Source: an uncultured Pseudomonadota bacterium (GTDB lineage: Bacteria; Pseudomonadota; Gammaproteobacteria; CAJXQU01). From it: DNA of 64,000 nucleotides. The translations under genes were made by a program, and so were the position numbers. A model generated the notes under the pieces. The model saw nothing but the letters and a program-made list of their open reading frames with translations, did no database searches and was not told the origin of the DNA. Positions 2,061 through 37,785 of the stretch are shown here, in pieces; the first letter of the stretch is position 1, and the number at the start of each line of letters is the position of its first letter. The DNA is taken from the NCBI GenBank assembly GCA_913058255.1, contig CAJXQU010000002.1, positions 169,352 to 233,351 on the forward strand, in the 5' to 3' direction.

Positions 2061-2153
2061 TTATTTTAAATCACATATAAAACAATGAGATATAAACATG
2101 CTTATTTTTTTTCTACTTTTTTAGAGTATTCCTCGCTCAAATGTGTCCCAATT

Positions 2154-2167
2154 GTCGTGTTTTTGAC
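2154..2167 (-). promoter_or_regulatory. Possible enhancer-binding-protein site (FleQ-box-like)
   Basis: Minus strand GTCAAAAACACGAC resembles the 14-bp GTCA-A-rich-TGAC FleQ box, ~120 bp upstream of the predicted sigma54 start. Confidence 0.35.
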
Positions 2168-2319
2168 TTTCAGTATTTTGATGATTGCAGTCTCACTATA
2201 AGCTAAATTTAGGTAAGTGCTAATCGCCAGATTAAGGTGTTGTGCTTGGTACCCAGATTAATATTGAATACATAGCAAGAGGATAGTTTATATGCCTAAT
2301 AACATCATTAAGGTTAATA

Positions 2320-2466
2320 GTTAGAGATAGAATAACGTTCTAGCTATCTTTAATCCCTAACTCAGGTTAAATAAGGAAGGTGGCCATCCTTGGCCAAGTT
2401 TATTACAGGCCATTCCTTGGCCCGTAAATTACCAGCAGCTGCATGTCCGTGTGCAATCACTGCTGA
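2320..2466 (-). ncRNA. Candidate CsrA/RsmA-sequestering sRNA (Rsm/Csr type)
   Basis: Three hairpins with ANGGA in the loop: CAGCAG..UGCA-CACGGACA-UGCA..CUGCUG, UUACGGGCCA-AGGAA-UGGCCUGUAA and GGCCA-AGGA-UGGCC. A fourth AGGGA and a possible terminal hairpin lie near 2322-2360. The 3' end is uncertain. Confidence 0.65.
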
Positions 2467-2471
2467 AATAT

Positions 2472-2499
2472 GTATCGGGCAAAGGAGCAAATTCCTTTA
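2472..2499 (-). promoter_or_regulatory. sigma28 (FliA)-like promoter
   Basis: Minus strand TAAAG-N15-CCCGATAC versus consensus T(A/C)AAG-N14-GCCGATAA. One mismatch at each end of the -10 element, and the spacer is 1 nt long. Confidence 0.45.
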
Positions 2500-2580: not shown

Positions 2581-3957
2581 CTATTCCGTATCTTGAATAG
2601 GCAAGTTGAGGTTTTGTTCACGGTTTTCAGGCTCATCGTCATAATTACTATCTAATTCAAGCGCTGAAATAGCCTGCACAGAAGAACCAATTATTCCTCT
2701 GACGTCACCATACATTCCTATCGTATTGCTTGTAATACGCTGGATCTGCTTTTCACGTTCTTTCCAGATACGCTCCATGGCACGTTTTTCTTTATGAAGC
2801 TGCTCTTGCATACTGCTGAAGGTTTCTACAATGGCTTCTACGCGTTGTTTAAACTCATCGCCAGAGAGGTAGCTGAACATCATTTCCATCTTTTCTCCTT
2901 TACCTTGAGAGGCATTTCTTGCGAAATTTATTTGGATCAATTGTTCACGTAGAGCGGAAGCTAAGGGCAAGGCTGACTGAACATCACTGACCCAGACACC
3001 CTCTAACAAACCAAAGCCTTTTATGCCCTCAGGCAAAGCTACAGTGACGAGGATGGATAAATTTGCACCGATATCACGTTGATCATCTTTTAACTTTGGT
3101 ATCCACTGCTGAGACCAGTTTTTTGTATTCTTTGCTTCCCAGATGATTTTTCCACAATCGTTCATCGTCGTGTCACGTACATCTTGGATCACATCAGCAC
3201 CTTTGATCCCTTTTGGTACAGGTGATATTTCATCATGCACAAACTGGCTACGTAGCCTTCTTTCTAGATCCAGCTCTAAAACCTCGCCTTGGATCTCCAT
3301 CGAGCCTTGTTCACTTTTGCGCTTAGCTTCCTCCAATGACTTACGCAGGCCGTCAATCTGCATCTCTTTTTCTCTAAGCTTAAGGCTAGTTTCATCAGAA
3401 AATTGTTTACTGATCTTCTCTTCTATTCCTTTACGCTCCTCATCAATTTTACGTTGAAACTCAAGATCCATATTCTTTTGCTTTTCTTCTAGTTCTCTCG
3501 CTTGTTTGCGGATCTCAAGTTCTTTCTTTTGTGCTTCTTCGACACGACTATCTTTTTCTTTTATTTGTGCTTGTAGATCATTGATCTCAACAGCTGCAGC
3601 TTGTTTGGCTTTTTGCTCCAGTTGGCTACGTAAAATCTGCTCTTGTTTTTTTAAACGTGATTCAAGTTCTTCATCTAACTGCTCACTTTTAGCCTCTAAA
3701 TCTCTTTGTTGTTTCTTTAGGCCTAACTCTTTTTGACGCGCGAGTTCTAGTCGTTGGTTCTGTTCGTCCAACTGTAGCTTCATATCTTCTTTTTCAATAG
3801 AAAATTGCTGTTGCGTCTTCTTCTCCGCTGCTGCAACTGCCTGTGAAAGCTTCTGTTCGTTGTCTTTTCTCAGTTCATTTTCGATCTGTTGTGACAGTAC
3901 CGTTGAGATCTCGATTTCAGTATTACACTCAGGGCATTTAATGGATTTGTCTGTCAT
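2581..3957 (-). CDS. DUF2130 domain-containing coiled-coil protein
   Basis: N-terminal CPEC, long coiled coil, and C-terminal QGEVLE..GADVIQ..IIWEAKNTKNWS..KLKDDQR typical of DUF2130. Confidence 0.85.
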   Translation of the reverse strand: MTDKSIKCPECNTEIEISTVLSQQIENELRKDNEQKLSQAVAAAEKKTQQQFSIEKEDMKLQLDEQNQRLELARQKELGLKKQQRDLEAKSEQLDEELESRLKKQEQILRSQLEQKAKQAAAVEINDLQAQIKEKDSRVEEAQKKELEIRKQARELEEKQKNMDLEFQRKIDEERKGIEEKISKQFSDETSLKLREKEMQIDGLRKSLEEAKRKSEQGSMEIQGEVLELDLERRLRSQFVHDEISPVPKGIKGADVIQDVRDTTMNDCGKIIWEAKNTKNWSQQWIPKLKDDQRDIGANLSILVTVALPEGIKGFGLLEGVWVSDVQSALPLASALREQLIQINFARNASQGKGEKMEMMFSYLSGDEFKQRVEAIVETFSSMQEQLHKEKRAMERIWKEREKQIQRITSNTIGMYGDVRGIIGSSVQAISALELDSNYDDEPENREQNLNLPIQDTE

Positions 3958-10092: not shown

Positions 10093-11967
10093 CTAAAATT
10101 CTTCCCACTCGTCACTATTAATGCTTTGATTTGCTGCCGCTGCTTTCATTTGCACAGGCCTTCTTGCCGGCGCTTTCTCAGCTGGTTTGTCTTCATTCCA
10201 GGGACGCTCATTTGATCGTCTATTGTCTTGTGTTGACGCTTGAGTTTGCATTACCTCTCCTGTATTGAAGAATTCCATTTGTTCTAGTAGGCCTTGAGAT
10301 TGTTCTTCCATAGACTCACTGGCAGCGGCAGCTTGTTCAACCAAGGCAGCATTTTGTTGTGTGCCTTGATCCATTTGCGTGACCGCTTTATTAACCTGCT
10401 CGATTCCAGTCGATTGCTCCAGTGATGCTGCGGCAATTTCGGCAATGATATCACTGACTTTCTTCGCAGAAACCGTGATTTCTTCAAGCATAGTTCCAGA
10501 TTCATCAACCAGCCTTGAGCCTTCTTCAACCTTTTGAACACTATCGTTTATGAGGCTCTTGATTTCCTTCGCTGCACCTGCAGAACGTTGTGCAAGGTTT
10601 CGGACTTCTGATGCTACGACTGCGAAGCCTCGTCCTTGTTCACCCGCTCTTGCTGCTTCTACCGCAGCATTCAAAGCTAACAAGTTAGTTTGGAAAGCTA
10701 TCTCATCAATGACACCGATGATGTCTGATATCTGACGGCTAGATGCATTAATTTCTGACATCGCAGCTACAGCACTACTGACAACCGTACTACCTTTTTC
10801 TGCTTGTTCTCTTGAACTAGCTGATAGTTGGTTTGCCTGACGAGCATTATCGGCATTTTGTCTCACTGTACCGGTAATTTCTTCCATGCTAGACGCTGTT
10901 TCTTCTAATGATGAAGCCTGTTGTTCAGTTCGGTTACTTAAATCGGTATTACCTTGTGCAATTTCACCTGCTGAAGACTGAAGGTTGACAGCACCCTCCC
11001 TAATATCAGCCACCATATTCTTAAGGTTTAGAACACACTCGTTAACAGATGTTTGAAGACCATCAAATTCATTACTGTAGTCGCCATCCATCGTTTGAGT
11101 TAAATTACCTGCAGCGATAGCGCTCATTACATGGGATGTTTCATCCATTACTTGTTCTAATTCTTGGGCCTTATTTTTTTGTTCCGTAATATTTGTCGCG
11201 TACTTAACGACCTTAAAGGCTTCCTTTTTAGGATTAAAGATAGGGTTGTAAGAAGCTTCTAACCATAGCTCGCTTCCATCTTTAGCTATGCGTAGGTATT
11301 GTCCTGAATCAAACTCACCATTCCCGAGTTTTTTCCAAAACTGTTGATATTCAGCACCGTTTCGTTCGTTTTGCTCAACGAACATACTATGATGTTTACC
11401 TTTGATCTCATTAAGGCTATATCCGACGGTTGCACAGAAGTTATCATTGGCTGTAATAATCGTACCGTCGAGTTCAAACTCGATAACCGCTTGAGCTTTG
11501 CTAATGGCTTCTAGCTGGCCAACAAAGTTGGAGTTTTTATGTATATCTTCAGTAATATCGGTAGCATATTTAATGACTTTAAATGGTTTTCCATCTAAAT
11601 CGAGTATAGGGTTGTAGCTTGCTTGTAACCAAAGGTCACTCCCATCTTTAGCTATGCGCAGGTATTGGCCTTCATCGTACTCACCTTTTGCGAGATTTTT
11701 CCAGAAGCCTTTATATTCAGCACTTGTTCTCTGGCTCTCTTCTACAAACATACTGTGATGCTTGCCAACAATTTCTTTTAACTGATATCCAACGGTTGAG
11801 CAAAAATTTTCATTCGCATTGATGATAGTTCCATCCAACTCAAACTCAATCACCGCTAGAGCTTTGCTGATAGCCTCAATCTGTGCGGCTTGTTCAATTT
11901 GTTTTAAACGTTCATCTTGTGACATCTTAGTGTTATCCATTATTTTATTTTTTTGAGTTGTTGGCAT
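10093..11967 (-). CDS. Soluble methyl-accepting chemotaxis protein (PAS-PAS-HAMP-MA) with C-terminal pentapeptide
   Basis: Two AVIEF..DG.I..AN.NF PAS repeats, signalling motif [31 protein letters not shown]-terminal EWEEF, no TM segment. Confidence 0.95.
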
Positions 11968-37456: not shown

Positions 37457-37785
37457 TTTTTATTTTTTCTATTGTTTAGTGAATACTGTTTACCCGTAAA
37501 ATCTATTGCAAATTGCCGCGCAGATCGAAAGTTTCTATTTTCTGCTCGTCCAATAAAGACCTGCAATCGATTAATAAATATTTTGAATAAATAGTGGAAG
37601 GCCAGCCATAATAAAAATGCCTCATAATGTAGTTTACTCTCATACTTAGTTCAGCTTACAAAGATTTAAAACCTTGAAGTATTCAAAAGGTATTCTCATC
37701 GAACATAACGACAGCGGGTGACATACTCTAGTCAATTTAAATATTGGTGTGCTCAATCAAGAAGTTCTTCATCAGCCTCTCAGCA

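Follow-up and report, generated by a model that had tools for sequence, protein, structure and literature searches.

On comparison between species, an intergenic element in the genome of an uncultured gammaproteobacterium appears to be a real, conserved small RNA that is restricted to one genus and has the anatomy of a Csr/Rsm sponge. The element lies within a 64,000-nt stretch of DNA (the window), behind a conserved sigma28-type promoter, an assignment which holds up well on alignment. We favour, as somewhat better than an even bet, the reading that this is a CsrA sponge RNA driven by the flagellar sigma factor FliA. An earlier interpretation made from the letters of the window (the sequence-only reading) had already proposed a FliA-driven, CsrA-titrating RNA here, and the comparisons described below partly support it. 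Its hairpins, GGA loops and -35 and -10 elements were checked against the sequence and are all correctly placed on the minus strand (Table 1).

The candidate RNA occupies a 742-nt gap bounded by a DUF2130 gene (2581-3957, minus) and an asparaginase-like gene (1347-1838, minus), in a genome of 2.78 Mb (33 contigs, 41% G+C). This gene order is common to the genus with one exception, L013, in which an asparaginase-like match downstream of the RNA was not found. The end of the DUF2130 gene lies 100-134 nt upstream of the RNA, on the same strand, in all species. A small open reading frame overlapping the element (2362-2490, 42 aa) was rejected as coding sequence because the indels between orthologues are not multiples of three. 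Elsewhere in the same assembly, the end of contig C3 (1-1234) carries a 16S rRNA-like fragment, the signature of which we take to recall Bacteroidota rather than Gammaproteobacteria; this contig end may be mis-binned or chimeric.

Table 1. Features of the candidate RNA, its promoter and the neighbouring small-RNA candidate (window coordinates).
Feature	Position	Strand	Remarks
-35 element CTAAAG	2495-2500	minus	sigma28-type; TAAAG at 2499-2495
Promoter spacer, 16 nt	2479-2494	minus	length conserved, sequence variable
-10 element CCGATA	2473-2478	minus	8-mer CCCGATAC spans 2479-2472
Predicted transcription start (A, +/-1 nt)	2464	minus	inferred; second base of hairpin 1
Hairpin 1	2433-2465	minus	two-part stem, 8-nt loop CACGGACA, ACGGA at 2450-2446; fold and alignment
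Hairpin 2	2403-2427	minus	loop AAGGAAU, AAGGA at 2418-2414; fold and alignment
Hairpin 3	2381-2396	minus	GGCC stem, loop AAGGAU, AAGGA at 2391-2387; fold and alignment
Pyrimidine/U-rich tail after hairpin 3	2366-2380	minus	possible weak intrinsic termination site
Fourth long hairpin	2319-2362	minus	AGGGA at 2358-2354 in 5' arm; fold only
Second small-RNA candidate	1957-2060	minus	directly downstream; conserved in genus

Folding of a 186-nt stretch formed the three hairpins with a dG of -55.6 kcal/mol (z -3.9), and none of 200 shuffles folded as well. RNAalifold recovered the same three hairpins from nine sequences, comprising the seven genomes of the genus and two members from metagenomes (L057 and L062); these sequences are not independent, since all come from one genus. 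An A-N-GGA motif in a hairpin loop is the binding signature of CsrA/RsmA. The GGA is retained in all 26 loops available among the nine sequences, hairpin 3 being counted without L057, which ends before it. Hairpin 1 carries ACGGA or AUGGA (GGA in 9/9), hairpin 2 carries AAGGA, AUGGA or ACGGA (A-N-GGA in 9/9), and hairpin 3 carries AAGGA, AGGGA or AUGGA, with both its GGA and its GGCC/GGCC stem invariant in 8/8. The sponge anatomy proposed from the single sequence, with GGA in all three loops, is therefore found again across the nine sequences. A fourth site, AGGGA, had also been listed; it is present where it was reported, but its place and context vary between species, the others having a different hairpin at this position with CGGA in its stem. 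The fourth long hairpin may or may not belong to the RNA.

The proposed structure has 89.4% of cells paired, against 10-47% with slid partners, and its covariation (0.085 vs 0.055 +/- 0.009 in shuffles) was reached by none of 500 shuffles. This covariation comes from hairpin 2 alone, the stem of which varies between species and has three pairs altered on both sides; hairpin 1 is nearly invariant, without covariation. Hairpins 1 and 3 hardly vary and are therefore mute for or against pairing, and their constancy means that their conservation could serve something other than structure. The DUF2130 protein shares only 58-79% identity between members of the genus; at that divergence neutral intergenic DNA would be expected to have become scrambled, and most of it has: the remaining intergenic spacer cannot be aligned between species, unlike hairpin 1, which is about 91% conserved.

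By BLAST, the element was detected in all six other genomes of the genus and in none of 34 genomes from other families. A covariance model (91 positions, 22 pairs) scored 83-100 bits in 7/7 genus genomes, with a single copy in the genome studied here, in which a search for paralogues with model R1 at E values up to 10 returned none. The same approach gave no matches in a sample of 149 genomes taken from other families throughout the class; the genus is the sole one of its family among the genomes compared. An exact-pattern scan of 185,579 species genomes returned six genomes of the genus only. The corresponding metagenome scan returned nine stretches, namely two duplicates, the two new members L062 and L057 (the latter running into a contig end) and five stretches of unrelated coding DNA; two of these five, L054 and L061, were run against the covariance model and neither matched, while L058-L060 were counted with them on their resemblance to L054 on reading.

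The comparison with known Csr/Rsm models that the sequence-only reading had called for brought up no family. Rfam gave no match at the gathering score over the whole window, and at E values up to 10 between 1800 and 2700 it gave no Csr/Rsm family, the weak matches there being unrelated ones on the neighbouring element (1950-2103) or spurious. Genome-wide searches for RsmY (best 15 bits), RsmZ (best 19 bits) and CsrB (none) stayed below threshold, with none at the RNA locus; the CsrC and RsmX models were covered by the window scans. On this basis, the element is in our assessment a new RNA family which current Rfam models miss.

How unusual such a cluster is within one genome depends on the criterion. 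One criterion, set after the element had been seen, asks for three or more hairpins in 110 nt, with stems of 4 bp or longer that contain two or more G-C pairs and with A-N-GGA in loops no longer than 9 nt. It gave exactly one cluster in the 2.78 Mb genome, which is the element itself; eight first-order Markov genomes gave 0, 1, 0, 0, 0, 0, 0 and 0. With at least three G-C pairs per stem, hairpin 1 is lost and no triples remain, and pairs of such stricter hairpins within 60 nt occur at about the chance rate (2 in the real genome vs 0, 0, 2, 0, 0 and 1 in simulated ones). A loose scan for GGA hairpins gave 61 clusters, mainly inside genes, and does not discriminate. The simple density of ANGGA in intergenic DNA is also shared with other places: the 4 in 130 nt seen here are tied with others, and the maximum is 5. 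The promoter motif by itself is not beyond chance either, TAAAG-N16-CCGATA occurring once in the genome vs about 1.9 expected per spacing (arithmetic from 41% G+C). The hairpins and promoter rise above chance because they are conserved across species.

That conservation is sharply focused in the promoter. In the eight sequences with a 16-nt spacer (six genus genomes and the two metagenome members), none of the 11 columns of TAAAG and CCGATA varies, vs 15 of the 16 spacer columns (hypergeometric p 9e-7). In an ungapped stack of the upstream DNA of the seven genus sequences, anchored at the start of hairpin 1, majority identity reaches 90% in CTAAAG and 95% in CCGATA, compared with 65% in the spacer and 62% further upstream, and the -10 element stands 7 nt from hairpin 1 in 9/9 sequences. 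The ninth sequence, the most divergent of the set, reads TCAAGTTT-N11-GTCGTTAA at canonical spacing; its -35 (TCAAG) is shifted by 1 nt and its -10 is TCGTTA, and the variant GTCGTTA also occurs in one of the flagellin promoters of our genome (C2:37565). An AAAGGA/TCCTTT hairpin inside the promoter spacer of our genome was set aside as an RNA feature, being without conservation.

The CTAAAG block matches the sigma28 -35 consensus TCTAAAG as quoted in the excerpts available of PMC12784957. The same excerpts give P. aeruginosa fliC a -35 of TCTAAAG at -36 to -30 and a -10 of GCCGATAA at -15 to -8 (PMC12784957). The predicted start was placed where it is because it lies 8 nt past the -10 8-mer, as in that fliC numbering, and it agrees with the start at about 2465 expected earlier. 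The spacer length is the irregular feature. TAAAG-N15-CCCGATAC, the form in which the promoter was first described, equals TAAAG-N16-CCGATA, and the spacing is N16 in 8/9 sequences and N15 in 1/9 rather than the canonical N15 throughout. Sigma28 spacers are described in these excerpts as conserved neither in sequence nor in length (PMC12784957), and the passages on spacers in the part of PMC12282069 seen concern sigma54 only. The claim of a sigma28 promoter thus stands as regards its two blocks, which are the sole conserved upstream sequence, and is weakened by a spacer 1 nt longer than those of the 18 other strict sites, and of both flagellin promoters, in the genome. This N16 spacer counts against a FliA-driven sponge, as does the fact that one N16 match per genome is the chance level.

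The element could instead be a CsrA/RsmA sponge which is not driven, or not driven alone, by sigma28. We consider this rather unlikely. Another factor might recognise the conserved blocks, the promoter might depend on an activator acting from upstream, for example a response regulator of a divergent GacA type or of another kind, or transcription might read through from the DUF2130 gene. The unusual spacer would fit such an arrangement, as would the proximity of the DUF2130 gene in every species and the presence, at about -45 to -95, of an A-rich tract (about -45 to -58) and partly conserved inverted repeats. These include a GTCA..TGAC motif near -80 to -95 (window about 2520-2565, minus; upstream regions of L010 and L062), TTGTAA-N6-TTACAA at -71 in L010 and TTATC-N6-GATAA at -70 in our genome, and an activator of another kind is therefore possible. 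Across the genus, however, the upstream repeats vary while TAAAG and CCGATA are kept, and the divergent ninth sequence retains a sigma28-type promoter with a flagellin-type -10. No sigma70-like hexamers were found at the promoter; the sole match between 1840 and 2620 lies at 2223-2195 and is no more than shuffles produce.

Textbook accounts place Csr/Rsm sponges under the control of GacS/GacA-type two-component systems, and the upstream activating box of GacA has the consensus TGTAAG-N6-CTTACA. With up to three mismatches allowed, no such box was found between 1393 and 4224 of the window, and the spacing of the inverted repeats does not fit it. A UvrY-like regulator is present in 7/7 genomes and speaks for a Gac-type input, but its best scores against the UvrY/SirA/GacA equivalog NF007018 (202-213 bits vs 280) are above the cut-off in none of the seven genomes. 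The best such regulator in our genome lies beside, and in the same orientation as, a HAMP-HisKA_3 kinase, not one of the GacS type, and does not adjoin uvrC. The best match to PRK11107, which we take to be the BarA model, is a BarA-like hybrid kinase at 476 bits vs a cut-off of 890. The regulator and this hybrid kinase could be a divergent Gac pair. Dependence on GacA had been named beforehand as the outcome that would count against FliA, and neither a GacA box nor a GacA equivalog was seen.

As anticipated, fliA is present (TIGR02479, 273 bits; C7:91933-92592), above the cut-off in 7/7 genomes, and flgM is also found in our genome. The canonical form of the motif, TAAAG-N15-CCGATA, occurs 18 times genome-wide vs about 1.9 expected, and 19 strict sigma28-type matches divide into 14 outside long open reading frames and five inside. 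The 15 downstream open reading frames scanned include four GGDEF or GGDEF-EAL proteins, an HDOD protein, an MCP, a PAS hybrid histidine kinase with two receiver domains and an Hpt domain, and an Hpt protein; the remainder comprise an SLT lytic transglycosylase, a short-chain dehydrogenase, a GAPDH-like protein, a sugar transferase and three without a family. The sites before the GGDEF or GGDEF-EAL, HDOD, MCP and hybrid kinase genes are spread over contigs C1, C2, C5, C12 and C17 (L021, L023, L025, L028, L031, L033 and L034). It is believable that this set of motifs represents the FliA regulon, and since the motif precedes GGDEF/EAL, HDOD, MCP and hybrid kinase genes, the putative regulon would be rich in c-di-GMP functions. 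Both flagellin genes are preceded by a sigma28 motif, TAAAGTTT-N11-GTCGTTAC at C2:37565 and TAAAGTAA-N11-GTCGATAA at the other gene. Within the window, a further TAAAG-N15-CCGATA at 11556-11581 (minus; C2:180907-180932) falls inside an open frame spanning 628 aa; it could be a FliA promoter within that frame or could have arisen by chance.

The presumed binding partner is also encoded. There is one csrA gene (PF02599, 92 bits), present in 7/7 genus genomes, in line with the expectation that the organism would have CsrA. Over 58 aligned residues its product shares 49 with P. aeruginosa RsmA (1vpz) and likewise 49 with E. coli CsrA (1y00). The gene for the protein antagonist FliW, which had been expected as well, was detected in 0/7 genomes (93-99% complete). 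Because FliW, a Gac equivalog and RsmY, RsmZ or CsrB were not found, the RNA is the only recognisable candidate for a CsrA antagonist.

A sigma28-driven small RNA need not act on CsrA. It could base-pair with mRNAs through hairpin 1 or the tail CCUUCCUU, or bind a different protein, with the GGA loops being secondary. Hairpin 1 is conserved in sequence far beyond the needs of pairing, as is typical of a seed or protein site, known sigma28-dependent small RNAs base-pair, and the element has just three GGA sites. Three firm sites are few for a sponge, and this is a point against our own reading as well. Yet GGA persists in every loop of every species, whereas the loop bases beside it vary, as does the hairpin 2 stem. 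Hairpin 3 (CCAAGGAUGG) is close to the CsrA SELEX consensus, and the genome has a single csrA gene for which another antagonist was not found. We regard action by other means as quite improbable. As each loop carries the A-N-GGA signature of CsrA/RsmA sites, sequestration of CsrA dimers is the most likely role of the RNA.

The length of the RNA is less clear. Hairpin 3 and its tail CCUUCCUUAU score as a weak terminator in our genome, and in L011 a different hairpin followed by UUUU scores as one; these are the two of eight full-length orthologues with a terminator after the hairpins. In the other six, the first terminator found is the strong one that ends a second small RNA, 300-500 nt further on. 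As a terminator is seen in just 2/8 orthologues, the transcript may be longer: it may be about 95 nt, about 150 nt, or the 5' part of a longer transcript.

The second small-RNA candidate has a sigma54-type promoter, TGGCAT-N5-ATGCA (2060-2045). A hairpin comes next, then CUCCUCCCUUUGG as an invariant single-stranded stretch (CTCCTCCC at 2007-2000), and finally a strong terminator at 1985-1957 (1985-1965 plus a U7 run). Compensatory changes occur in both of its hairpins, and Rfam gave weak matches only (mmgR/suhB 19 bits, BjrC1505 19 bits). Its sigma54 site lies at +406 in our genome vs +227 to +275 in relatives. The DNA between the two RNAs (window 2061-2362) is about 130-180 nt longer than in relatives and is possibly an insertion; the long hairpin at 2362-2319 is found in our genome only.

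The three hairpins could accordingly be the 5' domain of a composite transcript of about 330-500 nt, which would run to the terminator at 1985-1957 and include the sigma54-promoted RNA. The scarcity of canonical terminators between the two elements would fit, as would the strong terminator after the second RNA in 7/7 orthologues with enough downstream sequence (L062 ends earlier) and the adjacency and synteny of both elements in the genus. Against this, the DNA between them is unalignable and variable in length, with the sigma54 site anywhere from +227 to +406, and hairpin 3 with its U/C-rich tail, or the hairpins that follow, may terminate or be processed. We hold it to be the least probable of the alternatives discussed, and it would affect how long the RNA is while leaving both the sponge and the sigma28 reading intact.

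Returning to a FliA-driven sponge, what the sequences show is the anatomy of the element and its conservation, the footprint of the promoter, and that csrA and fliA are present; transcription by FliA, binding of CsrA, the targets and the 3' end are inferred. Sigma28 (FliA) would transcribe the RNA from CTAAAG-N16-CCGATA, starting at about 2464. Under a FliA promoter the RNA would appear only after FliA is released from FlgM, together with the late flagellar genes, and so would be made alongside flagellin and many c-di-GMP genes. The three loops would then bind CsrA dimers and lower free CsrA at the late flagellar stage. The flagellin mRNAs would be plausible beneficiaries, relieved of CsrA. 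The tandem flagellin genes share an identical ribosome-binding region, AAAAGGAGAAAGGACUAUG, with two GGA motifs, AAGGAG and AAGGAC (C2:36535-36566 and 37684-37715), and the second gene has a leader of about 130 nt (C2:37590-37715) with six GGA, of which one falls in a predicted hairpin loop. Such motifs look like CsrA sites, and because GGA lies both at the ribosome-binding region and in the leader, the flagellin mRNAs are plausible CsrA targets. The RNA would thereby link the state of flagellar assembly to the CsrA regulon in a genome in which FliW, a clear GacS/GacA pair and another Rsm-type RNA were not found.

The candidate resembles RsmX, RsmY, RsmZ, CsrB and CsrC in being intergenic, in its consecutive A-N-GGA hairpins, in the canonical CsrA of its host and in the presumed titration of CsrA dimers. 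Unlike them it has no Rfam match in sequence or structure, only three firm sites, a range of one uncultured genus, and a sigma28-type promoter in place of a sigma70 promoter with an upstream activating sequence, neither a GacA box nor the equivalog having been found. It is like the sigma28-dependent small RNAs in joining the late flagellar regulon through a FliA promoter. In E. coli these are MotR, FliX, UhpU and FlgO, which act by base-pairing, and we know of none among sigma28-dependent small RNAs that has been described as a GGA-hairpin CsrA decoy. Sigma28-dependent small RNAs are also reported in the sections seen of two studies of C. jejuni (PMC11187230, PMC4626219).

The nearest precedent for the wiring, from the portions of the source available, is the flaA mRNA of C. 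jejuni, which is sigma28-dependent and titrates CsrA alongside FliW (PMC4894983). According to the same portions, flaA is a coding mRNA and is itself the main CsrA target, with FliW as the main antagonist (PMC4894983), whereas the candidate RNA is non-coding and dedicated, in a genus with FliW in 0/7 genomes. Where FliA is mentioned in the parts seen of a recent study on new Csr RNAs (PMC11882849) and of a review on CsrA circuitry (PMC7652899), it is only as a CsrA target. In the literature surveyed, judged mostly from titles and the starts of abstracts, no FliA-driven dedicated sponge RNA is described.

Coupling of CsrA relief to flagellar assembly is also achieved in Bacillus subtilis, where a FliW-flagellin-CsrA partner switch operates and the FliW protein is freed by flagellin export. 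The arrangement proposed here is alike in tying CsrA relief to the assembly state, and differs in that the antagonist would be an RNA, made when export of FlgM frees FliA. To our knowledge, the only links from a flagellar checkpoint to CsrA are the FliW protein and, in Campylobacter, flagellin mRNA.

A further-reaching version, which we put forward tentatively and hold to be possible rather than probable, is that in this deep-branching lineage the sigma28-made sponge is the only CsrA antagonist, such that completion of the hook-basal body, through FlgM export and FliA release, would directly switch off CsrA. This would parallel the FliW partner switch, reached convergently and by means of an RNA. 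Together with the adjacent sigma54-promoted anti-SD small RNA, it would then form a 'flagellar hierarchy' RNA island that couples motility to a c-di-GMP-rich FliA regulon.

The compact, three-hairpin candidate sponge is testable in a heterologous host. If FliA does drive it, the sigma28 sponge would be a third, RNA-only solution to the problem of placing CsrA under flagellar control. It would also show that evolution can give the Csr system an entirely different input.
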